The position numbers and the translations under genes were made by a program. Source: a virus. From it: DNA of 64,000 nucleotides. Where the stretch lies: IMG/VR virus record IMGVR_UViG_3300036863_000086, positions 8,477 through 72,476 of that record; one strand, given 5' to 3'. Under the pieces are notes generated by a model. That model worked only from the letters and a program-made list of their open reading frames with translations, did no database searches and was not told the DNA's origin. Shown here piece after piece: positions 14,485-64,000 of the stretch. Numbering within the stretch: the stretch's first letter is position 1; every line of letters starts with the position of its first letter.

Positions 14485-15002
14485 CAGATCCCTGCGCTCC
14501 GTTTGTTCCAGTTCACAATAATAATGCCTTCAACCCATGCAGAGAAAATCGCTTCAATCCGCACTTGATCGTCGCGTTGCATGACAGCAAACGGACGCGC
14601 GGGGAAGTCGACATTGAAGAAATCCCTGCCGCCCTGATGAAGCATTCCGTACCATGCTGCGTTTGGTAGATTTGAAATAGATGCCTCATGGCCAGTGATC
14701 GTCCATCGAGCACGATGGCTCATCGCACCGAACAGTTGGCCAGATTCGACAAGAATGTCGCTCCCAAAGAGCCCACCCATCGTGCCCTGGCGCTCGCGTC
14801 GTGCGATCGTTTCCTCAGAAAGCGGCTGCCACGGAGGCCGGCCGCCTTCTTCAAAATTCTGTAAAATTGATGGAATAAGAACTCGGTCAACTGCCTTCGT
14901 CAGTGGCACTCTAAAGGTTCGAAAGCCTGCCGCGAGTTTCGCAAGATCAAACTCAAGCACCGCAAGCGGTGGAACGTAGTCGATCTTGAACTCAGTTGGC
15001 AT
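14484..15002 (-). CDS. Neck / virion morphogenesis protein (Mu gpG-like)
   Basis: NFEEGGRPPWQPLS..T, ILVESGQL, YGMLHQGG, PARPF motifs. Confidence 0.8.
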   Translation of the reverse strand: MPTEFKIDYVPPLAVLEFDLAKLAAGFRTFRVPLTKAVDRVLIPSILQNFEEGGRPPWQPLSEETIARRERQGTMGGLFGSDILVESGQLFGAMSHRARWTITGHEASISNLPNAAWYGMLHQGGRDFFNVDFPARPFAVMQRDDQVRIEAIFSAWVEGIIIVNWNKRSAGI

Positions 15003-15014
15003 ACAGGCTCCGTT

Positions 15015-15434
15015 TCAGAATGTTCCTGTCAGAGTTTCTGTCACGCCGTTCGTCGTATCAGTGATGGTCACGTCAGAGAAGACAACTGTCATTGGCGGCG
15101 AGCAGGATGGCTGGAAGACTGCTGTCACCGACAGCTCGAAGTCAGCCTTGCCGTTCTGGACAGGAAAATCACCAGCAGCATTCAATGACTCTTTGTTTGC
15201 TGCCTGTGGGTGGTTGTCACCAGGATTGATACAACTTGCAGTTGCGCTGAGAACAATGTGAACCTGCGCTTCGTCGCCAAGGCCAGCTTCTTTGCCACTT
15301 ACTGTCAACGTATTATCTGAACGAGCAACGCTGAGCTGGTCATCAACAAAATGCGGACTTCCTGCCAATGCGGCAGTCGTCGAACCGATTACCATAACTG
15401 CTGCCAATGCAAGTGCTGTAAAGAAACGTTTCAC
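15015..15434 (-). CDS. Secreted hypothetical protein (moron-like)
   Basis: Signal peptide MKRFFTALALAAV..AALA; SCINPG and CSPP cysteines. Confidence 0.65.
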   Translation of the reverse strand: MKRFFTALALAAVMVIGSTTAALAGSPHFVDDQLSVARSDNTLTVSGKEAGLGDEAQVHIVLSATASCINPGDNHPQAANKESLNAAGDFPVQNGKADFELSVTAVFQPSCSPPMTVVFSDVTITDTTNGVTETLTGTF

Positions 15435-23272: not shown

Positions 23273-24001
23273 CTAATTTATAGGGCGATAAACGAGACGC
23301 TCAGAAGTCACCTGGCGTCCAGCAATAAGTACCTGCGGTGCGCCGGCGGTGGCGAGTTTGAATGCCACGGTCATTAGCGCCTTACTGCTCGCGTTCGTTA
23401 AAGTCGCGGCGGACTGGCCAGTCGCCCCAGCGGTCGCCTTCGTCGCCGTGACCATCCCGATCCCACCACCGTTCCCGGCGATTACCCAGTTGTCCATTTG
23501 CTCGACAATGTTGGAATACGTAGCATTGGTGAGCGCGCCGAGGTTTGCGGTGGAAGCCACATCGGTACCAGTGGCGATGATCTCTAAAATCAGTGTGTCT
23601 GCAATGGTGGTGGTCACCCCCGGCCACGTCGCCGATGTGTCCGAGGTTGCTTCGACCGCGCTCGCGGCGACATCCCACGGGTTGGCGGTGGTCGGGCAGC
23701 CACGAATGGCAATCATCCGGCCGATGTTATGGTCCCCTGAGTCGCCCAGCGACGGGGCGGTGAACACGCCGTCGTAGCGCGCCCAGATTACCCACAACCT
23801 CGTGTTGGTGCCCTCCTGAATTGGCGACCCAGTGATATGCGCCCACCCGCTTGGCAGCGTGTAGGCGCCGGGGGCGGTGACCCCCTCACATTCCGCAACG
23901 GTGACCAGAATGTCGCTGGCGACGATGCTGGCCGGAAACGCAGGGGTGATCGCGGCGGTTCCCGACGCAACCGCGCCGACGTTCACAACGGTGGGGGGCA
24001 T
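23273..24001 (-). CDS. Putative virion accessory protein
   Basis: 242 aa Ala/Thr-rich, coupled to upstream gene. Confidence 0.6.
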   Translation of the reverse strand: MPPTVVNVGAVASGTAAITPAFPASIVASDILVTVAECEGVTAPGAYTLPSGWAHITGSPIQEGTNTRLWVIWARYDGVFTAPSLGDSGDHNIGRMIAIRGCPTTANPWDVAASAVEATSDTSATWPGVTTTIADTLILEIIATGTDVASTANLGALTNATYSNIVEQMDNWVIAGNGGGIGMVTATKATAGATGQSAATLTNASSKALMTVAFKLATAGAPQVLIAGRQVTSERLVYRPIN

Positions 24002-35547: not shown

Positions 35548-35689
35548 GGGGTTCCCTCCCTTCTATTTGTAAAGCGCAAAACTCGCTTCTACTCTTCAAC
35601 TTCCAGAGCGTCCCACCTTCCCAGTTATACTGCCATACGTCGTGCGATCTGGCGAGTTACTGTTCCTTATATAGCAAAGCCTGGCCGGA

Positions 35690-36270
35690 GATGAAATCCG
35701 TACACTGCGTGCGAGCCATCATAGAAGTGAAAACCATGGCACCGAGTGCGAGCCATTGGCTGTGTGAATTCCCATTTGCATCGTGCGAGCCATTTAGAAC
35801 GTGAAATCCAAGCATATCGTGCGAGCCAAGATAATTGCGAAATCCATCCATCTCGTGCGAGCCAAGGTAATATGTGCAACCCAAATCATGCGTGCGAGTC
35901 ATTGAGCGAATGCAACCCATCGCCTAGCGTACGAGCCATTGCTTACTGTGAAACCCAGGTGTAGCGTGCGAGCCAAGGTATGTATGAAACCCAAGCTAAA
36001 GGTGCGAGCCAGTATCGTTGGTGCAACCCCAAGTGTAGCGTGCGAGCCAAGGTAATGTGTGAAACCCAAGTGTAGCGTGCGTTAGCCGCAAGAACGATGA
36101 AATCCGTCCATCTCGTGCGAGCCAAACAGAGCGTGAAATCCAAGTTTACCGTGCGAGCCATTGGATCGTGTGAAGCCCTAAGCAATGGTGCGAGCCGTTA
36201 TACCCGTGAAAACCAAATGGAGGTGCGAGTCAAAGATAAAGTGAAGCCCAGAATCAAGGTACGAGCCAAA
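35690..36270 (+). repeat. TIGR-like dual-repeat array A (~16 units)
   Basis: Alternating GTGCGAGCC(A) and (G/A)TG(A/C)A(A)(C/T)CC(A) repeats separated by ~9-nt variable spacers; period ~36-37 nt. Confidence 0.9.
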
Positions 36271-36285: not shown

Positions 36286-37116
36286 GTGACGACAACAGAG
36301 CAAGGAATTGTCGTTCCAACGTTGCCAGAGATCGAAACGCTGGAGCGGAAAATTCGCACAACAGCAGCACAGCTTCCGCCAGAGGAAGCACGACTGCTGG
36401 TGCTGCTGTACTACCAATTGCAAGAACACCGGATCGCCACCGGTAACCAGGCAAAAAGCGGTGGTGACAACCCAATCCTGATGCACTATCACCAGCAGCT
36501 CTCTTCACTGGAACGCAGCCTACCGCCGCTGCTCGGCAAATGGGCACAGTCCCAAACTGCTGGACAGTGGTCCCTGTCACAGGTCGGCGTCGGTCCTGTT
36601 ATGGCCGCAGGTCTGCTCGCGCATATCGACATTGTCAAATTCCCTTCGGTGTCACACCTGTGGTCATTCGCTGGCCAGAACCCACTTGCAAAATGGGGGA
36701 AAGGCCAGAAGCGGCCGTGGAACGCACAACTCAAGGTGCTGGTCTGGAAAATCGGCGACTCATTTGTCAAGCTCAACAAGCACCCTGACTGCTACTACGG
36801 TCATATCTACGCGAATCGCAAGGCGATCGAAGTCTCTCGCAATGAGCACGGTGCGTTTGCGGAGCAGGCAGCAGAGATTCTTGAGGTTCGTAAAATCAAG
36901 GACGAGCGGACGCTGTCCTTCTACAAGGCCGGCAAGCTGCCACCGGGGCACATCGATATGCGCGCTCGGCGTTACGCTTCCAAGCGGTTCCTCTCACACT
37001 ATTTCGTCGTTGCGTATGAGGCAGCGCACGGCGAGCCTGCTCCTCGTCCATATGTAGAAACAGTGCTCGGGCACACCGACATCGACGCACCGCCAAACTG
37101 GCCATTGACCAAGTAG
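36286..37116 (+). CDS. TasA-like Nop-domain RNA-guided protein (IS110 C-terminal-domain homolog, no nuclease domain)
   Basis: GTG start after AAGGAG; 276 aa; GVGPVMAAGLLAHIDIVKFPSVSHLWSFAG matches the IS110/Nop helix-hairpin motif; no N-terminal DEDD RuvC or HNH; flanked by arrays. Confidence 0.85.
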   Translation: MTTTEQGIVVPTLPEIETLERKIRTTAAQLPPEEARLLVLLYYQLQEHRIATGNQAKSGGDNPILMHYHQQLSSLERSLPPLLGKWAQSQTAGQWSLSQVGVGPVMAAGLLAHIDIVKFPSVSHLWSFAGQNPLAKWGKGQKRPWNAQLKVLVWKIGDSFVKLNKHPDCYYGHIYANRKAIEVSRNEHGAFAEQAAEILEVRKIKDERTLSFYKAGKLPPGHIDMRARRYASKRFLSHYFVVAYEAAHGEPAPRPYVETVLGHTDIDAPPNWPLTK

Positions 37117-37134
37117 CAATTAATTACTTGCCAA

Positions 37135-37820
37135 ATGGTGATCGTGAAACCCATATCCTTCGTGCGAGCCAAGAACGTAATGAAACCCAAATCGTAGGTG
37201 CGAGCCTCTATAAGGGTGAAACCCATAATTCCTGTGCGAGCCATGTCGCGCTGAAACCCGAGCGGTATGTGCGAGCCCGTCTGATCGTGAAACCCATATC
37301 ATGCGTGCGAGCCATAGCAGCTATGAAACCCATGCCCTTTGTGCGAGCCTCTATGAGGGTGAAATCCGCAATCACTGTGCGAGCCACCAGCAAAGTGCAA
37401 ATCCGTACTTCATGTGCGAGCTACAGGTTTTAGTGCAACCCAATATAGTCGTGCGAGCCACTACAGAGGCGAAACCCATACTCCAGGTGCGAGCCATTGC
37501 AGTCATGAAACCCATGCCTCTTGTGCGAGCCACCGTGGTTCGGTGAAATCCGTACGTCGAGTGCAAGCCAAGACGTGTATGAAACCCTGATGTAGCGTGC
37601 GAGCCGGAACACAGGTGAAACCCTATGGCTCAGTGCGAGCCATACTTTCTGTGAATCCCAATCCATGCGTGCGAGCCATTGTCTTCGTGAAGCCCAAGCA
37701 TTCAGTGCGAGCCATCAACAGTAATGAAACCCAAATTAGGCGTGCGAGTCCAAGCATAGGGTGAAGTCCGTAGCCTTGGTGCGAGCCAAATTCTCAGTGA
37801 AACCCATAATGTTCGTGCGT
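37135..37820 (+). repeat. TIGR-like dual-repeat array B (~18 units)
   Basis: Same repeats and period as array A, directly after tas stop. Confidence 0.9.
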
Positions 37821-38318: not shown

Positions 38319-38560
38319 CCACAGGCACCATGAAGACGATGGATCAGTCTGGTGACACCGAAATCAAGTGGGACCGCAGCGATCCAGACTCAATTGCAAT
38401 CGCTCGGGAAGCATTTAATGAGGCTACTCAGCGCCGTTCGGAAGGCGGCAAGGGCTATCTGGCGTATCGCGTTGAGCGTGGTGGTAAGGGTGCAGTCATT
38501 CGTGACTTCGATCCTGCCGCCGAGCGGATCATCCTTGCGCCGCCTATGGCCGGTGGTTAA
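38315..38560 (+). CDS. Small protein ending in Gly-Gly (possible ubiquitin/ThiS-like)
   Basis: 81 aa, C-terminus IILAPPMAGG. Confidence 0.6.
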   Translation: MTTGTMKTMDQSGDTEIKWDRSDPDSIAIAREAFNEATQRRSEGGKGYLAYRVERGGKGAVIRDFDPAAERIILAPPMAGG

Positions 38561-38573
38561 TTCAGAGGAATAT

Positions 38574-39134
38574 ATGCCGTACCGCGTCTATGCTTCCGAA
38601 GCGACAGCCACCACAATTAACATGAGCGCAACAACAAACACCACCACAGATCCTGGCAACTATTACATCTACTTCAATACCGGCTATCGATACCCGAGCG
38701 CCGAGGAACTACGTCGTCTGCAACCACAAGCATACGAATTTGCCAACGCCACGCAACAGTACCGGCGTTGGCAACAGCAACAGACAGCGCATGAACGACA
38801 GGCAGCACGTGAACATGAGAAGGAAGCACAGGAAGCACAAAAGCGTGCAGAAGTGCTCCTGCTCTCCGTTCTCGACGCAAGGCAAGCTGAACAGTGGGCA
38901 ACGACCCACGAAGTCGACGTGGTCGGCTCAGAAGGGCACAACTACCGTCTGACTCGCGCTCGTCAAGGTGGCGTATTCCGCCTTGGGTCACGAAACCGTC
39001 GTACGCATTCGCTGTGTATCCACCACGACTACGCAATTCCTATTGAGGACCAAATCGCAGCGCAGAAGCTCCAGATCGAAACGGACGAAGCCGAATTCTG
39101 CCGTATCGCAAATGAGAGCCCAGTACTCGCGTAA
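38574..39134 (+). CDS. Hypothetical protein with C-x-H...D motif
   Basis: GAGG RBS; HSLCIH...PIEDQIAAQKL..ETDEAEF. Confidence 0.65.
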   Translation: MPYRVYASEATATTINMSATTNTTTDPGNYYIYFNTGYRYPSAEELRRLQPQAYEFANATQQYRRWQQQQTAHERQAAREHEKEAQEAQKRAEVLLLSVLDARQAEQWATTHEVDVVGSEGHNYRLTRARQGGVFRLGSRNRRTHSLCIHHDYAIPIEDQIAAQKLQIETDEAEFCRIANESPVLA

Positions 39135-39139
39135 CAACT

Positions 39140-41092
39140 TAGCCATTGCTAGCGGTGAAGCCCATGCCTTTTGTGCGAGCCACTAGCCCATGTTAAGCAC
39201 ATACCGTGCGTGCGAGCTATAGGTAGCTGTGAAGCCCATGTCTTTTGTGCGAGCCACCATCCTAGTTAATAACAAAGTGTACGTGCGAGCCACCACGAGC
39301 GTCAAATCCCATAGGGGCCATGCGAGCCAATAATGCGTGTGAAATCCGTCGACAAAGTGCGAGCCAAGATACTTATGAAACCCGTACCATCTGTGCAAGC
39401 CTCTGAATGCGGTTGAAACCATACCATCTGTGCGAGCCGTACCCTTAGTGAAATCCTCTTCGGCGGTGCGAGCCACACTCATTTGTGAAACCCCAGTACA
39501 ACGTGCGAGCTACAAATGGTGTGAAACCCAAATTTCCCGTGCGAGCCACTCCCCGTTGTGCAAGCCCGAGATGTGAATGCGAGCCATTGAAACGGTAAAA
39601 TCCAATTCCTTGGTGCGAGCCATTGAACCCGTAAAATCCGTATCTCTCGTGAAGTCCGGGTTGCATGTGCGAGCCACAAGTTCAGTGAAATCCATGTAGT
39701 ACGTGCGAGCCACTCCCTGTTGTGCAACCCGGAGGTGCAGTGCGAGCCACGGCAATGCATGTAACCCAAATTTCCAGTGCGAGCCATATCGTTTGTGCAA
39801 CCCAATAGAACCGTGCGAGCCATTGAATCTGAGAAACCCAATTCCTTGGTGCGAGCCATGTTCAGTGCGAAATCCAAGTGCAACGTGCGCGCCAGTCTGC
39901 GTGTGAAACCCATACCATGTGTGCGAGCCATTACAGTGAGTAAAATCCACTATCTTGGTGCGAGTCATTACAGTGAGTGAACCCCAATGGATCTGTGCGA
40001 GCCATTATTCCCGTGAAATCCAATATCTCAGTGCGGGCCAAGATGCTTGCGAAACCCATAAAGTCAGTGCGAGCCATTGCCGTCATGAAATCCATTGACT
40101 CAGTGCGAGCCATTACTTCCGTGAAATCCGTACGTAGCGTGCGAGCCATCCCAGTCGTGAAGTCCATAGTTGGTCTGCGAGTCAAGCTAAGCGTGCAACC
40201 CAACATGGCCGTGCGAGCCATTGTCGTCATGAAAACCAGGGTTAACGTGCGAGCCATTGAAACAGTGAAACCAGTCCTTAACGCGCATCCCATTACGTAA
40301 GCCAACAGCCGCGTGACATCCATACTACTCGTGCGAGCCAGCTCCTAAGTGAAAACCGTACCCCTTGTGCGCACGCCTATAGTGAAACCCTGTTCGATGT
40401 GCGAGCCGTTGTTATGGTGAAATCCCTACCACATGTGCGAGCCAAAGCAATTGTGCAACCCAATGTCGGTCTGCGAGCCAAAAGCAAGGTGAAAACCGTG
40501 CCCTATAGTGCGAGCCATGTCTGAAATGAAATCCACAGGGGTCTGTGCGAGCCACAGGCAATGGTGCAAACCGAAGTCGAAGTGCGAGCCCCGCGCGACA
40601 GTGAAATCCATATAAGCGGTGCGAGCCGTACCATTAGTGAAATCCCATTCGTCCGATGCGAGCCATGCGATATGCGAAACCCATAGCAGGCATGCGAGCC
40701 AACGGCAGGGCGAAAACCGTACCCCATAGTGCGTGCATAAGCCATGTCTTCTCTGAAATCCAGGGATCTCGTGCGGGCCAAGGTGTGTGATGAAACCGAC
40801 CCCAACGTGCGAGCCATTAGCAAGGTGAAACCCGTACTCCTGGTGCGAGCCATTACTTCCGTGAAATCCTCCGTCCTTGGTGCGAGCCATCGTCAAGGTG
40901 AACTCCATTCCAATTGTGCAAGCCATTCAAGCAGTGAAAACCCACCCCAAGAGTGCGAGCCATATTGCGCGTGAAACCCGCCGCCCTTCGTGCGAGCCAC
41001 ATCGTCGGTGAAACCCAAGCATATTGTGCGAGCCAACGAGCGTCTGCAATCCATATTGCGGGTGCGAGCCAGTCACAACGTTCAACCCGTGG
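39140..41092 (+). repeat. TIGR-like dual-repeat array C (~50 units)
   Basis: ~1.95 kb of the same dual repeat with occasional variant repeats. Confidence 0.9.
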
Positions 41093-41145
41093 GCATTGTG
41101 CGTCCATCAATCCAAAAACAGCGTTCGAAAGGGCTACAAGTTAAA

Positions 41146-41520: not shown

Positions 41521-42258
41521 ATGGTCGTTGCTGCCAGAAATTGGGAGACGAATGCTGCCTTCTGGATTCGTATCATTCGAGAAAGGCTTGATCCCTACCG
41601 CACAGAACTGACTGATGATGCCGTGCTCAACGAGGTTGGTCCTGCCGAGGGACGGAGAATTCTCGATGCAGGCTGCGGTGAGGGATATATGTCGCGGCTG
41701 CTCGCACATCGAGGTGCCAGTGTTGTAGGAATCGATTCTTGCCAAGCATTGGTTCATGCAGCCCAAGATCACACCACAGAAGGTTTGAGTATTAGCTACG
41801 AGGTGGGCGACGTTGGAGCACTGCCACTAGCTAATACTCAATTCGATATTATCGTATGCAATCACCTCATCAACGACCTTCCCGATCCAGCTATCCCGTT
41901 CCAAGAGTTTGCTCGCGTCCTAAAACCACGCGGGCGGCTTGTTATCCTTATGCTTCACCCGTGCTTCTCTATCCCCAGATCGACGGAACAGCGATCCAAT
42001 GGAGGACTGATCAGTTCGGAGTACTTTAGGGTGCGACGGATTGAAAAGCACTTCGAAATTGGCGGGGTTACATCGCCCACAACGGTCGTTGTATGGATAA
42101 GATCCATAGAGTCTTATAGTGAGCTGTTGTTCGGTGCCGGCTTCACTATAACTGGACTGCAAGAGCCACGCCCAACAGAGCAGTTACTGCAAGACCCTTG
42201 GTGGCGTGTGAGCTTCTCCCAACCTCGTTTTTTGTTGATAACTGCCAAGAGACGTTGA
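41521..42258 (+). CDS. Class I SAM-dependent methyltransferase
   Basis: ILDAGCGEG, VVGID, GDVGALP, FDII, RVLKPRG motifs. Confidence 0.9.
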   Translation: MVVAARNWETNAAFWIRIIRERLDPYRTELTDDAVLNEVGPAEGRRILDAGCGEGYMSRLLAHRGASVVGIDSCQALVHAAQDHTTEGLSISYEVGDVGALPLANTQFDIIVCNHLINDLPDPAIPFQEFARVLKPRGRLVILMLHPCFSIPRSTEQRSNGGLISSEYFRVRRIEKHFEIGGVTSPTTVVVWIRSIESYSELLFGAGFTITGLQEPRPTEQLLQDPWWRVSFSQPRFLLITAKRR

Positions 42259-43162: not shown

Positions 43163-43558
43163 GACAAGGAGGATGGCATGGACATGTTTCCCAAACTGCT
43201 TCACATGCTCGTGACGGTCGGGTCGGGCGGATGGCTCACTCTGACCGTGTGGGGCGAGTACGCCAGACTGTGGATCTCGGCTAGGTAGGACAAGGCGCCT
43301 ATACCGGGCAGGCCGGGCAGGCCGGGCAGGCCGGGCAGAGGGTTCGATCCCCTCGATAGGCACGAGCAGGACCGCGACGGCCGACCCGTCGCGGAGTCGG
43401 ACAAGGAGGTCGAAGTGGACAGTATCGACAGGGAGGTCATTCGGCGCAGGAAGGCCAGGCGTGCCAAGCTGGCCAAGCGTGTCGAACGCACCATGCAGAC
43501 CAAGCGGCCCAGAGGACGCGGAAGCGATTTCGCGGACTTCCTGAGGAAGTAGGACATA

Positions 43559-48161: not shown

Positions 48162-48272
48162 CTCCAAACGCGCAGTAACTCATTCATGAGGGTTCCAAGC
48201 GTTGCTTAGGAAGCTGTAGAAAGCTGGAAATGAGGGTTTCTCGCTCCAACTGGTAACGATGCAAAGGAATGC

Positions 48273-48446
48273 ATGATGGCCGAGAACCCTGAGAACCCCA
48301 AGGATGGTTTGGCGTCGATTGTCGACGTGAAGAACTTCTTCGAGTACGAGAACATCTCGAAGTTCCGCGCCGACTGGCAGAAGTTGTCCGACGTTGACAA
48401 GGTGCAGCTCCGGCTGGGCATCGGCGAGGGTACCCTGACCTACTGA
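48273..48446 (+). CDS. Small hypothetical protein
   Basis: AAGGA RBS; MMAENPENP...FRADWQKLSDVDKVQLRLGIGEGTLTY (57 aa, below cutoff). Confidence 0.65.
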   Translation: MMAENPENPKDGLASIVDVKNFFEYENISKFRADWQKLSDVDKVQLRLGIGEGTLTY

Positions 48447-48578
48447 GTTTTTCCACGCGAGGAACCTTCATTTCCAGCTTTCTACTGCTCAAGTAGCAAG
48501 TTAACGGGATTGTCAGTGTGCGGGATACATGCATTGGTTGGCTCCTCCACGAACAACGAACAACGAGGAGAACAGCCA

Positions 48579-49985: not shown

Positions 49986-50264
49986 ATCACTACCGGGTAA
50001 CTGGTGCCAGCCAATGCTTGCATCCTTCACAACGACAGTCCCGTTTACTTGCTACTTGAGCGCTGGACTTTTCAGATGGACCACAGAACAACGCGATATG
50101 TGCTGCGCTCTGCGTTTGAGGAACGTCAAGGTTGGAGCAACCATAAAAGACACTCCACTTGCCAAGGTTCCCGTTCTGTGGTCCTTTTGAGAAGTCCAGC
50201 TTGTTGTTTGGCGTTTGAAAGTGGATTGTTTCGTCCGATGGTAAGAACAACAAAGGATGGAACA

Positions 50265-51585: not shown

Positions 51586-52507
51586 CACGATGCCGGCTAT
51601 CGTGACCACAGTGAGGGAAATCCCAACCGCGCCGTACTACGTTCTATCCAACGACAGATTCATGAGCGGTTGGGGCCGGGCGCATACATCGGGCGCGTTT
51701 GGAAATCCGTATCCCGACAGAGGGGCGTTGACCAACACCATCATCCTGCCGTGCGAAAACTGGACGGAAGCGCTGATTGTCAAGGAAAACGCCGAACGTC
51801 GTACCGATCAGACGAGAGTTCGGATCGTCGTGAACAAACCGCGACTCCGTTCTGAGCACGTCTATTCGCTCCTGACAAGACTAACCGCAGAGTGGTGGTT
51901 CCAGCCGGGGGCGTTCAAGTAACCAACGAAAAACCCGCCAACTTACTTTTGGAAGATCCGAGTATCGTGCAATTAATTGGGAACAGTAACGGCGAGAATC
52001 ACGATAGCTGAGAGCCCGTAAAAGGGAATATACCAATATCGTGATTAGGGCACGATCGCCCTGGGCCGGTCGGTTCAATCCGGCTGGATCGCAACCAAAC
52101 AGCGGAAGAACAGAGCCAGCTTAACCGCTGGCATCCGGTTACTGTTCCCAATTGATTGTACGACAAATTAGAATTGAGATAGGGAACGCACCCGGACGGC
52201 ATAACCCTGCTAGGTTTGCTAAGGGTCCGCCGTAGCAGCGGAAACGGGATATAGAGGGACCGCCCTATCTCAAAACCACGCGCCTAGCTGCAAAACGGCC
52301 TCGGGCCGGATCTGGTTCTCAGCGTGGGTTCTAGGGAAGCACGAATAGGAGCTGGTAATAAGGCTTCCCAGCTAACTTTCGCAGGATCTAAGGACCACAG
52401 GGATGCAGGTCTACAACCGCATTTCGACAAAACCCAAATGGTGAGGTTTCGTCGTTATCCCTGTGGTCCTTTGATTCTACGACGAGACAACGAACAAGGG
52501 TAAACAG

Positions 52508-52800: not shown

Positions 52801-52943
52801 AAGAAACTTGGGCTAGCCGCGTACTCCACTACGGTAATGGGAGAGCTATACGAAAGTGCCCGGCAACCTGAAAGCGCCTTACGGTGTATCCACCTTACGG
52901 TGCATCCATGTCGACGCCGGTAAGCCTTCCGCCCAAGTTTCTT
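52801..52943 (+). ncRNA. Unknown structured RNA motif, copy 1
   Basis: 13-bp closing stem; core shared with 56817-56963. Confidence 0.6.
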
Positions 52944-56816: not shown

Positions 56817-56963
56817 AAAGGTAGGGCACAAACTAGCTCTCCTCCCGAGGGTAATGAGAGAATCTTGAGAGCTTTGCACAACTCGACTCAAGTGCTATGC
56901 GAAAGCGCCCGGACTCGACATCTAACGAGCGGCCGGTAAGCCTCTTGTTTGTGCCCTACCTTT
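56817..56963 (+). ncRNA. Unknown structured RNA motif, copy 2
   Basis: 17-bp perfect closing stem; core shared with 52801-52943. Confidence 0.6.
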
Positions 56964-58486: not shown

Positions 58487-58675
58487 GTGATTCAGACGGT
58501 TGGCGAACTCCAACAGGCACTTTCAAAGTTCGATCCAGAAGCCAAGATCGAGGCATATAACAACGACTTCGATCTTCCAATGGATATCGGCGCAGTCCAA
58601 AAGGGCACCGATCCAGACAACCCAGAGATGGTCACTGTCGTCTGTGACGAAAAAGAAAAGGAAGCCGCAGAGTGA
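58487..58675 (+). CDS. Hypothetical protein
   Basis: TVGELQQALSKFDPEA motif common in small phage proteins. Confidence 0.6.
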   Translation: MIQTVGELQQALSKFDPEAKIEAYNNDFDLPMDIGAVQKGTDPDNPEMVTVVCDEKEKEAAE

Positions 58676-58734
58676 ATTGCGGAACCACAGGGTTAGGGAA
58701 ACGGCGGCTCTGGTCCTGTGGTTCCGTTATCTAC

Positions 58735-59885
58735 TAAGCCACAGCTTTCTGTGAAGCCCAGAGTTCTTGTGCGAGCCATTGTATTCGTGGAGCCCATTGT
58801 CGCTGTGCGAGCCGTCTGCTTAGTGAAATCCATTATCGTCGTGCGAGCCACTCTAGATGTGAAACCCATATCTTACGTGCGAGCCATGCCGCTACGTGCA
58901 AGCAACGTGAATCCCAAATCGTAGAGTGCAAGCCAAGTATTCAGTGAAACCCATCCCGATTGTGCGAGCCGTGAGTTTAGTGAAACCCAAGCTACAGGTG
59001 CGAGCCAACTCTTCTGTGAAAGCCCAGAGTTGAAGTGCGAGCCAGAAGTTATCTTAAACACAAGACATGGATGCGAGCCGCAGCAAACGCGGAACCCATA
59101 TGCTGCCCGTGCGAGCCACTGCCAGACGTGGAACCCATATCTCACGTGCGCGCCAAAATTTCAGTGAAACCCATACCGGTTGTGCAAGCCAAGATGCCCG
59201 TGAAATCCATAACAACGATGCAAGCCGTCTGCTTTGTGAAACCCAAGCTAAGCGTGCAAGCCGTCATTGGCGTGAACCCCTTTCGGACTCGTGCGAGCCG
59301 TTATGCTTGTGAAATCCATGGCATGCCGTGCGAGCCAATCCTTTCTGTGAAATCCACGAGGTTGCGTGCGAGCCAGAAGACGTCTTAAACACAAGACACA
59401 GATGCGAGCCAGCAGTTTTGTTAACCACAAGGCGTGGATGCGAGCCATTCTGGAGTTTAAACACATATTGTCGTGCGAGCCATGTTTGGCGTGAAAACCG
59501 TTTGCTTTGTGCGAGCCATTGACAGATGTGAAATCCAGAATCACAGTGCGAGTCCTATTGCGTGTGGAGCCCTACGTTCGGTGCGCGCCATAAGAATGGT
59601 GAAACCCACTATCGTCGTGCGAGTCATAGCTTGGATGGAACCCGATATGCAGGTACGAGCCGACATGCGTCTGAAGCCCAGAGTACTACGTGCGAGCCAT
59701 ATTATTTGTGAAATCCCTGTGATGCGTGCGAGCCATCCTCGTCTGTTAATTCCAAGCATAGCGTGCGAGCCAAGGATATCAGTGAAATCCAGCTAATGTG
59801 TGCGAGCCTTGTGGAGTGGTGAAATCCGGCTTGAGTGTGCGAGTCCTACTTTTGTGAATTCCAAAGGTTTGGTGCAAGCCAGCAG
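58735..59885 (+). repeat. TIGR-like dual-repeat array D (~30 units), remote from tas gene
   Basis: Same GTGCGAGCC / GTGAAACCC alternation and period. Confidence 0.9.
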
Positions 59886-60389
59886 GCGTTGAGAGAACGT
59901 GAATATTCCGCCTGCTTAACATTGTCGACTGAAAGATAAGGTGAGTCCAATGTAACCTAGCCATTTCTGGGTCTGAGTTTGCGTTCTTAAAGTTAGTAAT
60001 TGCAAGACCATTCCCTGTAGAGAAACATGCGCTCTGCGGGGTTTGGCCTCGCAATTGCGAGGGCTCAAAAATGAGCAAATAATCCCAGTCCAGCAGTTGT
60101 TCCGGCTTCTTCGGCTACGGAGCACTGCGCACGGATGGGGAAGCTGGTTGCGCTCATCTGGAATCCGTCTTGAACGGTGGATGGTATTGGACGCTGGGTG
60201 GCGACCCAATATTCTGGGGTTCAATTCCCCAGGAGCGCACAAGGCCAAGGAAAATTTAGCTGGTGAACGTCGTGAAACCCATACCATGCGTGCGATTTCC
60301 TTGGCCCCAAACGGGCCACAGGGCAAAGGTTACGGGAATAGCTCCCTCGGACTCTTATGCCCTGTGGCCATAATCGACCGTCGTGACAG

Positions 60390-60612
60390 CCAAGCCATAG
60401 AGTGAAGTCCAGAGGTGCAATGCGAGCCAAGACCCTGGATGGGAACCAAAAACCTAGTGCGAGCCATATGTCGCGTTAAACTCCACAAGTCTAGTGCGAG
60501 CCACCTTACTCGGATGAAACCCAAGAGGTGGATGCGAGCCATACTGCGAGAGAAACCCAAGGGTTTTGGTGCGAGCCGCTTCCCACTATGAAATCCAGAG
60601 GTGCGATGCGAA
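60390..60612 (+). repeat. TIGR-like array E (~6 units) enclosed by a 12-bp stem
   Basis: Repeats as above; GACCGTCGTGAC (60376-60387) / GTCACGACGGTC (60614-60625). Confidence 0.85.
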
Positions 60613-61175
60613 CGTCACGACGGTCATAAGTTGGCGGGCACGGCCCCTTGACCTGGGCGTTGGTCAGTTTAATGCCAATGTCTCAATTCATCCATGCGCG
60701 TAAGTCGGATCGCTGGAAAGATCCCTCGCCCAGAGGGAAGTGAGTACGGCTTTTCCGCTGCATATAAAGGGGCCGTGCCTGTCAATCGTGAACCGATTCA
60801 CAAAGTTTTCCGTCCAATTCTTGGGGCTGAAAATGTCCATCATTACTCCAGATGACATGAACTGCAACTTGGCGTCATGTCAGAAAGACATCTTTCCAAC
60901 TGACGTGGAGTCGTTCGGCATTATTTATTGGAATCCAAAAACGGAAAGCAACGAGCTGCTTGCAATGGCCTGTTCGATGGATCATCTGCTCCAGCTCCTT
61001 GACAAGGAGCGACAGTGACTGAAGACCAGATGCACGAGGACATAGCGCGTCGTTTGCGCGAGTTTGGGTATCCACAAACGACCGCCGAAGACATAAAAAC
61101 TGAGCTATCCCTTCCAAAGGAAAAGCAAAGCATCATCGGGATGTTTGCAACGGGATGGCTGGAGGAGTACGAGTA

Positions 61176-61664
61176 ATGCTCCTAGCTGAAGCGCTCACCC
61201 GACGCGGTGACCTCATGAAAAAGCTGGTCGACCTTCGTGACCGCGCCACAGCAAACGCGCGGTATCAGGAAGGCCAGGAGCCAGCAGAAAGCACAGCCGA
61301 CCTGACTGCTGATTGGGAAGTAGCAGGTGACGAGCTACAAACGCTGATCACACGGATCAACATCACCAACTCCAGAACAATGTTCTCCATGAGCGAGCAC
61401 AGCGAACAAACCACGCTGACCGACGCGCTGGCGGAACGTGAAAAGCAAGGACGGCGTCGGAAGTTCTACAGCGAGCTGGCCGATGCAGCGGCAGGATCAG
61501 GACGCGGAAACCAGTTGCGGTGGCGATTCACTCGTGACGAGATCGTGACCAAGACCGATTTGGATGTTCCACAGCTCCGTGCAAACGCCGATAAGGCGGC
61601 ACAGCGATTCCGCGAGATCGACATGAGAATCCAGCAGCTCAACTGGCAAACTGAGCTGCTATGA
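61176..61664 (+). CDS. DIP1984-family protein
   Basis: MLLAEALTRR...QEGQEPAE...RINITN...LTDALAER...IDMRIQQLNWQTEL. Confidence 0.75.
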   Translation: MLLAEALTRRGDLMKKLVDLRDRATANARYQEGQEPAESTADLTADWEVAGDELQTLITRINITNSRTMFSMSEHSEQTTLTDALAEREKQGRRRKFYSELADAAAGSGRGNQLRWRFTRDEIVTKTDLDVPQLRANADKAAQRFREIDMRIQQLNWQTELL

Positions 61665-61781
61665 GGATCTACCGAACAGCCAAAGGAATCTGGGGATTCG
61701 GAATGAGCAAGTCGCCTGGAGGCTGGCACTTCCAGTTCGGTCCTTGGGTTCTAACGACCGAGCTGGGACAGGAAGGGAGCG

Positions 61782-62018
61782 ATGGCCGAGGGAAAGCAGC
61801 CGAGCAGAGGAAAGAAGAACCGGAAATTTGGCCGCAACCGCTTCGGTGACATCAAGTGTGGTCCAGCAAACAAGCGATACGTGGAAAAGAACCACAGGTT
61901 CCACAACAAGCTCCGCAACGTCGAGCGCTGCAATGGTGAGGACGCAGCGCGGAGCTACCGAGCAAAGTTCGGTGACGTAAAGTACGCCGGAAAAAGCCTG
62001 GTGAAAGTCAAGAAGTAG
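61782..62018 (+). CDS. Small basic hypothetical protein
   Basis: Lys/Arg-rich, GGGAG RBS. Confidence 0.55.
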   Translation: MAEGKQPSRGKKNRKFGRNRFGDIKCGPANKRYVEKNHRFHNKLRNVERCNGEDAARSYRAKFGDVKYAGKSLVKVKK

Positions 62019-62458
62019 CAAACGTGGACGCTTCGGTGACGACCGGAGTGGAGAGGGCGAAAATCCCTCCGCTGGACTGAGTTGCGCCGGACAGCCGAGA
62101 ATGCGCTCAGTCCAGCGCCCACAAAACGTGAGCTGACCGAGGCGTGGGTGCGGGTGGTATGACACGACCTTTAAAAGTCTCAGTGTCATGGTAGGTCAGC
62201 TCACACAATTTAAGAAAGAGTTGGTAGCAAGAATAAGAAGGGCGAGTGCAACAACTCCCTCGGAGCTGGCTCATAACCAGGCGTACGCGAGTGGCCACGC
62301 GGTTTGGTTCAATTCCCATTCTTTACAAGGCACCGAGCAGGCCATGCATAGCGTACATAGACGAGGAAACTCAACAAGTAACTGCGCACTACCACCGCAC
62401 TGACTTCTTGTTGTTGTGAGGGTGTGGCTAGGGGAAACTCTTTCTTCGGAGGTAAGAG

Positions 62459-62695
62459 ATGATAGAGCTAACCGACAATGAACTACGGCTACTCAAGGGC
62501 GCGATGGACCTGCTGATTCGTATCCATGGTTCCACGGTCTTACAAATCCCTGTCGACGAGCAAAGGAGGGCCTGTCCAGCGTCACCGTGGTTGATGCGAG
62601 GGAAGCTGGTGGACGAGTATCACGAACGTGGAATGGAAACAGAAGAGGAAGCCTCGGCGCGAGAAATGCGTGAGCGGTTTACGAGGGTACGATGA
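62459..62695 (+). CDS. Hypothetical protein
   Basis: GGAGG RBS. Confidence 0.55.
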   Translation: MIELTDNELRLLKGAMDLLIRIHGSTVLQIPVDEQRRACPASPWLMRGKLVDEYHERGMETEEEASAREMRERFTRVR

Positions 62696-62991
62696 GTCAA
62701 TCAACGCCAAAGAAGCCAAAGGCACCGAAGGTCTGTAGCGAATGCCTGCGGCGCAAGGTTCGGCATACAGTCGATGGCAGGCATTTCTGCCGTCGCTGCA
62801 AGCCGTAGCAAAAAGGTAAGCGATGCTCAAATACAGAAAACGACCAGCTCCAATTACGGCTGCTGTGTTCGAGTTCACAAACATGAATTCCATACTCTCT
62901 CCAAAACGTCGTTGGGTGCTTGTCATGGGTTCGTTCATGATGAACAGTCGGCGATTCTGGGTGGAGTTGTGCTGCAAGCCATAGAAAGGCC

Positions 62992-63064
62992 CGGGACGTA
63001 GCTTAATTGGAAGAGCCCCGGTTTTGGGAACCGGCAGGTGCCAGTTCGAATCTGGCTGTCCCGA
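62992..63064 (+). tRNA. tRNA-Pro(TGG)
   Basis: CCGGT-TTTGGGA-ACCGG; GTTCGAATC. Confidence 0.9.
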
Positions 63065-63671
63065 CAATGATCCACTACAACTAAAGAGGCCAAATGGAAC
63101 CCAAGAAGGTAACGAAGCGAAATCCAGGCGTTGGCGATGTCACAATCTACCATCCTGATGGAACGGTGGAAGTGAAGAAGCCATATACAACCGCAGAACT
63201 CAAAGATATCGTGGCGAAGTATTATCGACGGAAGCCACGTCGGTTCCAAAAGGACGCAAAGGATGACACTGGAGAAAGTTAGCGACCTGCATTACCGAAC
63301 AATAAGTGGCAACTTTGAAGTCGAGTATGTTCGGAACAAGCTCGGAGCGGCATTCAGCGGCAGGTGGCATATCCGTCGAGTTGGCAAAAAGGTTGCCGTT
63401 GCCAAGTTCGCACAGCTTGGGCAAGTTCGGGATTGGCTGCGGGACAATGACAAGGTGACCGATGAAATTCGAGCCAAGAGAACTGAGTTCACTGGAGAAT
63501 CGACCACCGACGGAGCCATACGAAGTGACAATGGCAGTTGTGATTAGCGTTTCTGGTATCTCACCAGAAGACGCGCTTGCCACTGCCATCGTCGACGCAA
63601 CACGAAAAGGTTTCCGAATTGTCGGAGACAAATACACGGTAGAGAATCTCAGCCAACACTGAGCAAAGAAC

Positions 63672-63766
63672 GGAATACAGAGAGCCATATGCTGAGTGAA
63701 TTCCAGTACTGTAAGTGCGAGCCAACGGACCCATGAAACCCAAGCCCTCTGTGCGCTCTGTATTCC
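63672..63766 (+). repeat. Two-unit TIGR-like mini-array inside an 11-bp stem
   Basis: GGAATACAGAG..GAGCC-N9-GTGAATTCC-N10-GTGCGAGCC-N9-ATGAAACCC-N9-GTGCG..CTCTGTATTCC. Confidence 0.75.
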
Positions 63767-64000
63767 ATTGTTTTCTCAGAGGAGGGAACAATGAAAGGTG
63801 TAGAAGATTGCATCTGTAACCTGGAAGATGCAACTTGTGATCCAATGTGTAAGTGGTGCATCGTCACAAATGGTGACTGCGATCCAGACCCAGAACAACG
63901 GGAAATGGAGGACGCATTTGACGGAGCACTTTCAGACGAATAGCGTCGTACTGGCCATGACTCAACAACTGGCAGATAGCATGAAGTAACAAACGACGCC

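Follow-up and report, generated by a model that had tools for sequence, protein, structure and literature searches.

Stem-closed small TIGR cassettes in a TasA-encoding phage and their possible role as precursor-level modules

TIGR-Tas is a newly described family of systems for RNA-guided targeting of DNA, and dual-repeat TIGR arrays with TasA were described by Faure et al. 2025 (PMC12045711). The window analysed here, 64,000 nucleotides of a viral genome (IMG/VR record IMGVR_UViG_3300036863_000086, positions 8,477 to 72,476), comes from a soil phage with about 120 TIGR units, a few small groups of which, far from the tasA gene, are each closed by an inverted repeat. The original prediction placed one, six and two units inside flanking stems at 60243-60306, 60376-60625 and 63672-63766, and likened them to box C/D snoRNAs. 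All three stems are present and perfectly paired, and such stand-alone or small cassettes do occur alongside large tandem arrays in this phage.

The TasA system and three small cassettes

The gene for TasA (36286..37116, + strand) encodes a protein with a Nop domain and no nuclease domain. The product (P0001) matched solved Tas structures (9mty_A, E 1.2e-16; TasH 21kl_A, E 1.5e-12) and the family phrog_4285 (3.5e-42). Its Y256 and H263 align with Y289 and H296 of SpTasH, which are the residues that process pre-tigRNA (PMC13421893). The TasA of this phage is of the dual-repeat, self-processing type. Four large arrays lie on the + strand at 35678..36263 (two blocks), 37129..37819, 39141..41102 (several blocks) and 58737..59876, and none has a closing stem; a 21-nt hairpin (58671-58735) stands just upstream of the last. 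Among the TIGR arrays of this phage, closing stems are found only on small, remote cassettes. Spacers gave no self-targeting signal, since the 127 parsed spacer pairs had seven hits in the phage genome at 2 mismatches and the reversed-spacer controls had four. A methyltransferase encoded nearby (41521-42258) matched generic SAM-methyltransferase families and not fibrillarin in a scan of selected ORFs. A conserved TIGR link to this gene or to two unknown ORFs was considered and rejected because no homologues, including any of the methyltransferase near Tas genes, were present in 40 fetched pieces (34 other viral loci and the related phage G008).

The solo cassette (60243..60306, + strand) consists of one 37-nt unit (60258-60294) inside an 11-bp stem. 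The 5′ arm GGCCAAGGAAA (60243-60253) is followed by the linker ATTT and by the unit, which parses as AGCT, GGTGAACGTC, the loop repeat GTGAAACCC, ATACCATGC and GTGCG; a single A then precedes the 3′ arm TTTCCTTGGCC (60296-60306), and the two arms are 100% complementary over 11 nt. The six-unit cassette, array E (60376..60625, + strand), has its units at 60388-60610 and is closed by a 12-nt stem, also 100% complementary, whose 5′ arm GACCGTCGTGAC (60376-60387) directly adjoins the AGCC at 60388 and whose 3′ arm GTCACGACGGTC (60614-60625) is separated from the last unit by AAC. Its second unit carries a degenerate loop repeat with 3 mismatches. In the two-unit cassette (63672..63766, + strand), both arms of the 11-nt, 100% complementary stem abut the units (63683-63719 and 63720-63755) exactly, with GGAATACAGAG (63672-63682) adjoining AGCC at 63683 and CTCTGTATTCC (63756-63766) adjoining GTGCG. 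An inverted-repeat search extended this stem to 27 nt at 85% complementarity (63659-63685 / 63753-63779).

All nine cassette units parse as AGCC (AGCT in the solo unit), 9-11 nt, the loop repeat, 9-10 nt and GTGCG, with a length of 36-38 nt, and all nine show the alternating edge and loop repeats, spacers of about 9 nt and unit of about 36 nt that define dual-repeat TIGR. Mean loop mismatches were 0-1.6 in the cassettes versus 0.9-1.4 in the large arrays, so the cassette repeats are about as well preserved. The three cassettes appear to hold units of functional quality that belong to the dual-repeat TIGR-TasA system encoded by the phage itself. Each begins with the 3′ half of the edge repeat (AGCC) and ends with its 5′ half (GTGCG), and these half repeats mark where Tas proteins cut pre-tigRNA. 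The distance from stem to unit is 0-4 nt, with a 5′/3′ register of 4/1 in the solo cassette, 0/3 in array E and 0/0 in the two-unit cassette. The three arm pairs have no sequence in common, which indicates that pairing is conserved and not a motif. At E values up to 1, the cassettes gave no match to an Rfam family, and hits above threshold in 35-64 kb were to tRNAs only.

The three closing stems are far beyond chance. Within 6 nt of the array ends, the flanks of the three cassettes pair with each other without a mismatch over runs of up to 11, 12 and 11 nt, compared with 2-3 nt by the same measure in eight large arrays or subarrays and at most 5 nt in 110 mismatched flank pairs. When the inner lengths of the cassettes were slid across the whole window, runs of at least 11 nt occurred at 6 of 63,903, 6 of 63,717 and 8 of 63,867 positions, counts that include the cassettes themselves. 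The MFE fold and the centroid fold each contain the stems, with z-scores of -4.18, -3.29 and -2.85 for the cassettes, and none of 200 shuffles folded as well.

Structured elements on the same strand

All TIGR units, all 11 tRNAs and the neighboring ORFs lie on the + strand, and the cassettes are set in a long region of that strand where tRNAs and further structured RNAs alternate with small ORFs. A look-up of RNA runs covering 58600-64000 returned none. Between 60243 and 60785, four stem-closed modules follow one another in series, joined by A/U-rich linkers of 7, 6 and 5 nt. Two of the four are the solo cassette and array E. Between them is a stem-loop (60314..60369, + strand) with a perfect 12-bp stem and a 32-nt non-TIGR loop, and 5 nt past array E is a module (60631..60785, + strand) in which a 19-nt closing stem (89% complementary) encloses 117 nt of non-TIGR cargo. 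The series is preceded by a tRNA-like element (60149..60241, + strand) that ends 1-2 nt before the solo cassette. It has a 7-bp acceptor-like stem and a canonical T arm, but reached only 16 bits against tRNA-Sec and is not a scored tRNA; no array in the window adjoins a scored tRNA, and this element before the solo unit is the only approach to such an arrangement.

On the same strand, at least ten stems of similar or greater length are wrapped around non-TIGR cargo, including a 57-codon ORF and two homologous modules between tRNAs. The original prediction that the cassettes reuse an enclosing-stem logic seen at 45.7-52.3 kb is borne out, since such stems recur on the + strand, both at 48.2-52.5 kb and at other places, but for the same reason the stem is not a feature specific to guides. 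Several stems of this phage are 19-33 nt long. Under identical settings, inverted repeats of at least 19 nt and at least 85% complementarity numbered seven in 41-64 kb and zero in 1-41 kb. Read on the + strand, the non-Watson-Crick positions over 13 stems comprise 11 G.U, 3 A.C and 8 others; this excess of G.U over A.C rests on the non-TIGR stems, as the three TIGR stems have no mismatch and so say nothing about the strand. The motif CCACAGG / CCTGTGG is modestly enriched and occurs in three hairpins. It was considered as a common stem motif and dismissed, as it is absent from the TIGR stems.

Related phages and strain variants

A search for stem-flanked solo units in other TIGR phages, proposed with the original prediction, found them in a related 103-kb phage (G008) whose terminase is 63% identical and whose DUF6847 protein is 57% identical to those of the phage studied here. 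In G008, 85 TIGR units are scattered over 41 arrays, as defined by regex. In 17 of the 41, a tRNA begins 3-10 nt past the end of the array, and in seven the array begins 2-13 nt past a tRNA. Stem closure is seen for two solo units, one in a 15-bp stem and the other inside a 26-nt stem. Arrays that have no flanking tRNA mostly have no added stem either (adjacent stem in 1/41). The edge repeat of G008, GGCGCC, is a palindrome. A further motif, GGCGCT..ACAGGCC, was confined to two adjacent hairpins of that phage.

Closing stems were absent from nine IMG/VR loci with the same repeats (L001-L009; flank run at most 5) and from 25 further loci with the same repeats (flank run at most 6), and none of the 37 arrays in these 34 loci lies within 20 nt of a tRNA. 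Ten whole records, including G008, contained no exact-pattern unit away from its own array cluster; the repeats of G008 differ, so that this search found no unit in it at all. The neighboring DUF6847 gene was found in one IMG/VR locus, that of G008, and peptide patterns retrieved no TasA from IMG/VR. A terminase search for relatives kept 80 loci, and none of ten long terminase-locus records matched phrog_4285, for which the phage's own genome served as a matching positive control. A metagenome scan with a DUF6847 alignment yielded 25 loci with no tRNAs and no TIGR array, of which three had short GC-rich repeats with an 18-nt period and one a repeat with a 36-nt period. For none of the three cassettes did the IMG/VR, terminase, metagenome and same-repeat searches yield a diverged homolog.

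Strain variants were taken from contigs of four soil DNA runs, in all of which the cassettes occupy one fixed place. Contigs X2 (58600-60903) and X3 (60038-60903) are identical across the solo cassette and array E, and among the differences listed for X2 and X4 none falls in 63659-63779. The pieces covering 60.2-60.6 kb had 16 differences in X4 and 2 in X5, and among those listed for X4, eight lie at 59209-59326, outside the cassettes. By the differences listed, the soil contigs are identical or nearly so across the cassettes, a divergence too small to test pairing. Joints in these contigs were treated as repeat artifacts because their sides of 26-30 nt fall within repeats.

Possible roles of the closing stems and comparison with known systems

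The reading that we favor, at a probability of about one half, is that the stems are precursor-level helices through which a small cassette can be cut out of a polycistronic transcript as a module with protected ends. Here we infer transcription, a role at the RNA level, which nuclease takes part and what becomes of the stems. The 11-12 bp helix would act on the precursor RNA, letting a cassette fold by itself, protecting its two ends because it pairs them, and flagging the module to be released from the longer, polycistronic RNA, either by a host double-strand-specific RNase or through cuts in the A/U-rich linkers of 5-7 nt. TasA would then cut the full edge repeats inside the cassette. Processing of minimal arrays required full edge repeats in published experiments (PMC12045711). 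For terminal units, which have no neighbor's half repeat, the helix may substitute for that half. The same stem device would be applied by the phage to non-TIGR cargo, and in G008 the flanking tRNAs may take over the job of the helix. Weighing against this reading are the shortness of the TIGR stems for RNase III, the changing register between stem and cut site, the origin of the G.U excess in non-TIGR stems, and the G008 arrays that have neither a flanking tRNA nor an added stem.

An unlikely alternative is that the stem is part of the functional guide. The helix would then stay on the solo unit, and on the terminal units of small arrays, when TasA binds them, in the manner of stem-loop-class Tas proteins or box C/D RNPs, making the cassettes hybrid stem-loop/dual-repeat tigRNAs. 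Stem-loop tigRNAs with variable closing stems are already known (PMC12045711), the helix of the solo unit would prolong the short paired element described beside boxes C and D at the 5′/3′ ends of dual-repeat tigRNA (10.64898/2026.08.11.744272), and the two-unit stem continues straight into the AGC/GCG of the half repeats. However, a single stem over two or six units cannot close the units one by one, each cassette has a different register of stem to unit, and non-TIGR cargo is enclosed by the same kind of stem. TasA also retains the Y/H dyad, reported in a preprint to be absent from all stem-loop clades, and no CUU stands at the base of the three stems, the sole CTT being inside the solo 3′ arm.

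It is improbable that the inverted repeats belong to the DNA level, as footprints of insertion (for example into the loops of existing hairpins) or as ends for recombination or mobility. Empty hairpins of similar stem length do adjoin cassettes or arrays (60314-60369, and 58671-58735 before the fourth large array), the cassette boundaries coincide with those of processed RNA, and the large arrays hold junctions such as GTGCG-TT-AGCC that resemble joined blocks, but the arm pairs have no sequence in common, there is no visible duplication of a target site, the cassette location is fixed in the soil contigs, and the G.U to A.C ratio of 11:3 in the longer stems is expected under selection on + strand RNA and not on DNA. 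Also improbable is a main role for neighboring genes, in which the stems loop out an intergenic insert and keep or regulate translation of the flanking ORFs or mRNA stability, with the TIGR units as passive cargo. Such a role would suit the enclosed 57-codon ORF and the two-unit cassette, which spans the gap from the stop codon of ORF 63462-63662 to the RBS of ORF 63791-63943. There, 63767-63777 has two possible pairing partners, 63659-63671 and the downstream RBS and start codon, so that the extension of the two-unit stem (63659-63779) competes with a hairpin over the RBS of the next gene (-17.5 kcal/mol, z -3.56). The solo cassette and array E, however, lie in a stretch of about 950 nt that has no convincing ORF on either side, and this reading does not account for stems that adjoin AGCC and GTGCG exactly.

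The cassettes, which have a helix in place of outer half repeats, offer a direct case for how end units mature in view of the need for full edge repeats, and bear on how guides far from tas are made. Should a helix, or a tRNA as in G008, suffice to deliver single guides from any transcript, a nuclease-less TasA could be supplied from many sites in the genome, the dispersal of arrays would be explained, and compact natural designs for multiplexed guide expression would be at hand.

Among known systems, the phage shares with dual-repeat TIGR the alternating 9-nt edge (GTGCGAGCC) and loop repeats, spacers of about 9 nt, a period of 36-37 nt, and a Nop-domain Tas gene between arrays with the Y/H dyad present. 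Its total of about 120 units compares with mostly 5-15 per array (PMC12045711). Unlike dual-repeat TIGR, the cassettes lie 19-26 kb from tasA with no rho-independent terminator-like site found after any of the three on the + strand, and a flanking helix encloses the whole small array, whereas unprocessed TIGR arrays are described as forming no extended duplexes (PMC12045711). With the stem-loop TIGR class, known from Faure et al. 2025 (PMC12045711) and a preprint by Xu et al. 2026 (10.64898/2026.09.09.750476), the solo unit shares its outline of two spacers, a conserved 9-nt loop and a closing stem of variable sequence. In that class each unit has its own palindromic stem and no edge repeats; in the phage, one stem serves 1, 2 or 6 units, only the solo unit has a stem to itself, and half and full edge repeats are kept. 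The Tas protein without the Y/H loop and the CUU at the stem base that mark the class are likewise not those of this phage.

Like box C/D s(no)RNAs, the cassettes carry dual guides and go with a Nop-domain protein, and their 5′ end is paired to their 3′ end in a terminal helix. RNase III (Rnt1) or tRNA-processing enzymes cut out some of the snoRNA precursors. The predicted box C/D-like architecture is nevertheless not supported, as one stem covers two or six units, TasA is a dual-repeat, self-processing protein, and the RUGAUGA (box C) and CUGA (box D) consensus sequences are absent from the cassette units, whose termini are AGCC and GTGCG and whose loop is GTGAAACCC. Box C/D RNAs have fibrillarin and L7Ae as partners and serve RNA 2′-O-methylation, whereas the targets of Tas are DNA. 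The cassettes show no K-turn, no L7Ae was seen among the selected ORFs scanned, and the nearby SAM methyltransferase has no fibrillarin match and is not conserved near Tas genes in the pieces compared. Membership of the cassettes in the stem-loop TIGR class or among box C/D RNAs is not supported. rRNA operons and phage early transcripts contain processing stalks for RNase III, in which flanks pair over long range around a stable RNA within a longer transcript. The flank pairing in this phage resembles these stalks, and several of its stems reach 19-33 nt; the TIGR stems, at 11-12 bp, are short compared with classical RNase III substrates (a helix of about two turns).

In the papers searched, no description was found of closing stems around a whole array or of tRNAs and tigRNAs interleaved in nature; the supplements and the TIGRSafari catalogue may hold such loci. 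A tentative wider proposal is that one lineage split its TIGR arrays into scattered, individually packaged guide genes within tRNA/mRNA polycistrons, with maturation signals borrowed from the host replacing neighboring repeats. These signals would be closing helices here and, in G008, flanking tRNAs together with the palindromic edge repeat, which would make each unit a small stem-loop. Such a lineage might link tandem arrays, in a form still alive today, to lone stem-closed guide genes resembling snoRNAs or stem-loop tigRNAs, and would match in nature what has been engineered as tRNA-guide arrays. In the latter, according to a yeast preprint (10.64898/2026.07.30.739390), tRNA-processing enzymes release the guides from tigRNA-tRNA arrays; those arrays are engineered and eukaryotic, whereas the tRNA-TIGR layout of G008 is natural.

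A dual-repeat TIGR system with three stem-closed cassettes

The virus record comprises 72,476 nt, of which the window covers bases 8477-72476, and DNA near-identical to the window is present in soil metagenomes. On the + strand of the window lies a dual-repeat TIGR system of very large size, in which an edge repeat (GTGCGAGCC; 131 copies at ≤1 mismatch, versus 20.7 ± 4.2 in shuffles) alternates with a loop repeat (GTGAAACCC) at a period of 36-37 nt. A unit parser assigned 111 units to four large arrays (35678-36263, 37129-37819, 39141-41102, and 58737-59876, all + strand) and nine more to three small cassettes. Between arrays 1 and 2 lies tasA (36286-37116, + strand), encoding a 276-aa protein (P0001) that matched solved Tas structures (9mty_A, E = 1.2e-16; TasH 21kl_A, E = 1.5e-12) and the phage family phrog_4285 (E = 3.5e-42). 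It was designated TasA because the matches span the Nop part only. Its Y256 and H263 align with Y289 and H296 of SpTasH, which are named as catalytic in pre-tigRNA maturation (accessible text of PMC13421893); this Y/H pair is described as conserved in dual-repeat systems and missing from stem-loop systems (preprint 10.64898/2026.09.09.750476, accessible text).

Irregular edge repeats within the large arrays (36077-36087, GTGCG-TT-AGCC; 39206-39218, GTGCG-TGCGAGCT; 40729-40743, GTGCG-TGCATA-AGCC) look like joints between blocks, each truncated at its edges. About 420 nt past array 3 is a SAM-dependent methyltransferase gene (41521-42258; PF08241, E = 8.5e-23), which had no fibrillarin match and no homologue near Tas genes among the 40 pieces compared, from 34 other viral loci and G008, a related phage contig. 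Arrays 2 and 3 are separated by, among other sequence, an ORF of 260 aa (38352-39134) that gave a weak, sub-threshold match to HEPN_Toprim_N (E = 0.0018) and no match in PHROG.

All three stem-closed structures described in the original prediction were found where it had placed them, on the + strand. The solo cassette has one unit (60258-60294) between arms at 60243-60253 and 60296-60306, with gaps of 4 nt (5′) and 1 nt (3′) between stem and unit. Array E has six units (60388-60610) between arms at 60376-60387 and 60614-60625 (gaps of 0 and 3 nt), and the two-unit cassette (units 63683-63755) abuts its arms at 63672-63682 and 63756-63766 directly, with 0 nt on either side. The closing helices are perfectly Watson-Crick paired over 11, 12, and 11 bp, respectively, and the arm sequences are unrelated among the three. 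Cassettes start with AGCC (AGCT in the solo cassette), the 3′ half of the edge repeat, and end with GTGCG or ATGCG, its 5′ half. The middle of the edge repeat is where published tigRNAs start and end, and natural TIGR arrays have truncated edge repeats at both ends (accessible text of PMC12045711).

The cassette-stem observation is real and statistically secure. Flank-pairing runs reached 11-12 in the cassettes versus 2-3 in the eight large (sub)arrays, and never exceeded 5 among 110 mismatched flank pairs; in a sliding comparison, runs of at least 11 occurred at 6-8 of about 63,800 window positions per inner length, with the cassettes counted in. The stems are present in both MFE and centroid folds (z −2.9 to −4.2). 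Repeats inside the cassettes are as conserved as in the large arrays, so the cassettes are not obviously decaying remnants. Spacer B of array E is near-identical in units 1, 4, and 6 (AGAGGTGCA, 60409-60417; AAGAGGTGG, 60523-60531; AGAGGTGCG, 60597-60605), where it forms a Shine-Dalgarno-like word.

No closing stem was found on the large arrays adjoining tasA, on the arrays of nine IMG/VR loci that share these repeats (top flank run of 5), or in 25 further loci from a single-unit pattern search (top flank run of 6). A whole-record search of 10 records, including G008, revealed no units outside each record's array cluster; the same pattern gave no unit at all in G008, whose repeats differ. Among the arrays compared here, closing stems are particular to the small, remote cassettes.

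Non-TIGR modules and the related phage G008

Between 41 and 64 kb, the + strand contains seven inverted repeats of at least 19 nt that are at least 85% complementary and within 400 nt, versus zero at 1-41 kb under identical settings. The seven enclose a 57-codon ORF with an RBS (48212-48489; ORF 48273-48446), structured segments at 50062-50200, 51965-52163, and 52379-52482, two related modules between tRNAs, and module Y, immediately after array E. The first four of these and a shorter perfect stem at 62070-62117 have arms of 12-33 nt that are 88-100% complementary, hold non-TIGR cargo, and gave no Rfam match. The two related stem-closed modules (52801-52943 and 56817-56963, + strand) fill inter-tRNA gaps exactly, beginning 1 nt after one tRNA and ending 3-7 nt before the next. 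They have the blocks GGTAATG.GAGA and GCCGGTAAGCCT in common and may represent an undescribed small RNA family. ARAGORN also called a 94-nt tRNA-Arg(ccg) at 43270-43363 in which a 9-nt sequence (CCGGGCAGG) is perfectly repeated in tandem 3.9 times (43304-43338), an odd insert for a tRNA.

At 60149-60785 on the + strand, a tRNA-like element, the solo cassette, hairpin X (60314-60369, a shorter perfect stem), array E, and the stem-closed module Y (60631-60785, directly 3′ of array E) follow one another, with linkers between modules of only 7, 6, and 5 nt. The tRNA-like element (60149-60241) combines a canonical T arm (GGGGTTCAATTCCCC) with an acceptor-like stem of 7 bp and ends 1-2 nt upstream of the solo cassette; it scored only 16 bits against tRNA-Sec, with no default ARAGORN call. 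Non-Watson-Crick positions in 13 stems, read on the + strand, were 11 G.U, 3 A.C, and 8 other, a count to which the three perfect TIGR stems contribute nothing. Such a bias of G.U over A.C is the pattern that selection on + strand RNA would give.

The closest relative found was G008, a 103-kb IMG/VR contig (terminase 63% identical, DUF6847 protein 57%), in which the TIGR repeats differ from those of the window (edge GGCGCC, loop CGAAAATCT). A regex search, which breaks arrays at degenerate units, recovered 85 units on one strand only, in 41 arrays scattered over 15-94 kb, with a weak Tas homologue among them (9mty_A, E = 9.7e-6). A tRNA gene begins 3-10 nt beyond the end of 17 of the 41 arrays, seven arrays start 2-13 nt after one, and six have a tRNA at both ends by these measures; with 37 tRNAs in 103 kb, far fewer than one array end would be expected so near a tRNA by chance. 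The palindromic edge repeat could close each unit with six G-C pairs as a small stem-loop, and an added stem directly at the array ends occurs in only 1/41. One solo unit (23915-23975) is closed by a 15-bp helix, and another shares a 26-nt stem of 96% complementarity (14986-15182) with roughly 100 nt of other RNA. The array ends next to tRNAs have the layout of a natural tRNA-tigRNA polycistron. Thirty-four other viral loci belong to the window's repeat family, and none of their 37 arrays lies within 20 nt of a tRNA, so that scattering of arrays with borrowed punctuation seems to characterize this lineage.

Proposed role of the cassette helix

The cassette helix is predicted to act at the precursor stage, a reading to which we assign a probability of about one half. 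It is suggested by the position of the helices at cut sites and their restriction to cassettes that would be isolated within a long transcript, by the presence of such helices around non-TIGR cargo, and by the tRNAs that occupy the place of the helix in G008. The helix would let the module fold independently, pair both its ends, and tag it for excision, after which TasA would cleave the internal full edge repeats. Stable RNAs commonly have their ends paired. The helix may also replace the outer half repeats, since the terminal units of the cassettes lack them; minimal arrays, with one to three units, are reported to be processed only when their edge repeats are full (PMC12045711, accessible text). 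This stand-in would be most important where terminal units make up all or a third of an array, and the absence of stems from arrays of 16-49 units fits a greater need where terminal units dominate.

Retention of the stem in the functional guide, as in stem-loop tigRNAs, would suit the solo unit, as the ends of dual-repeat tigRNAs already pair over a short stretch (10.64898/2026.08.11.744272, accessible text), but is unlikely given that one stem encloses two or six units, that TasA has the Y/H dyad, and that the stem base has no CUU. Insertion at the DNA level, with the inverted repeats as its footprints, would fit the empty hairpins beside cassettes and the block junctions inside large arrays; the arms have no sequence in common, however, and the G.U bias of the longer stems also makes this quite improbable. 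We consider it least probable that the stems regulate flanking genes, even though the two-unit cassette exactly fills the interval between a stop codon and the following RBS, and bases 63767-63777 can pair alternatively with the downstream RBS and start codon or with the upstream arm. There, part of the 3′ flank forms a hairpin (63763-63796, −17.5 kcal/mol) with the RBS and the start codon belonging to ORF 63791-63943, in competition with an outer extension of the closing stem; because of this alternative pairing of 63767-63777, only the 11-bp core was counted.

Relationship to known systems

Repeat structure and Tas protein both place the cassettes in the dual-repeat TIGR family. Membership in the stem-loop TIGR systems and in the box C/D RNAs was rejected, as the cassettes do not have their testable defining features. 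The original prediction is thus partly upheld: its stand-alone, stem-closed guide cassettes exist, but their likeness to snoRNAs did not hold, since stems of this kind also enclose non-TIGR cargo; the stem most likely serves the window phage as a general means of packaging rather than as a snoRNA-like guide feature. Stem-flanked solo units, which it had proposed seeking in other TIGR phages, occur twice in G008; the arrays of 34 other loci have no closing stem.

The closing helix at the level of the array, dispersal far from tas, and natural tRNA-tigRNA interleaving in G008 are new. No description of them was found in the full-text literature searched, although supplementary tables or the TIGRSafari catalogue may list such loci; a term look-up in the accessible text of PMC12045711 returned none of these features, and the words tRNA, RNase III, hybrid, and orphan are all absent from the TIGRFinder preprint. 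Unprocessed TIGR arrays are described as offering no extended duplex for RNase III (PMC12045711, accessible text), and the three cassettes are an exception in form to published arrays in having a duplex around the array; at 11-12 bp, their stems are short for RNase III, and the register between stem and unit varies. The interleaving in G008 is natural, whereas an engineered version has been tried in yeast (10.64898/2026.07.30.739390, accessible text).
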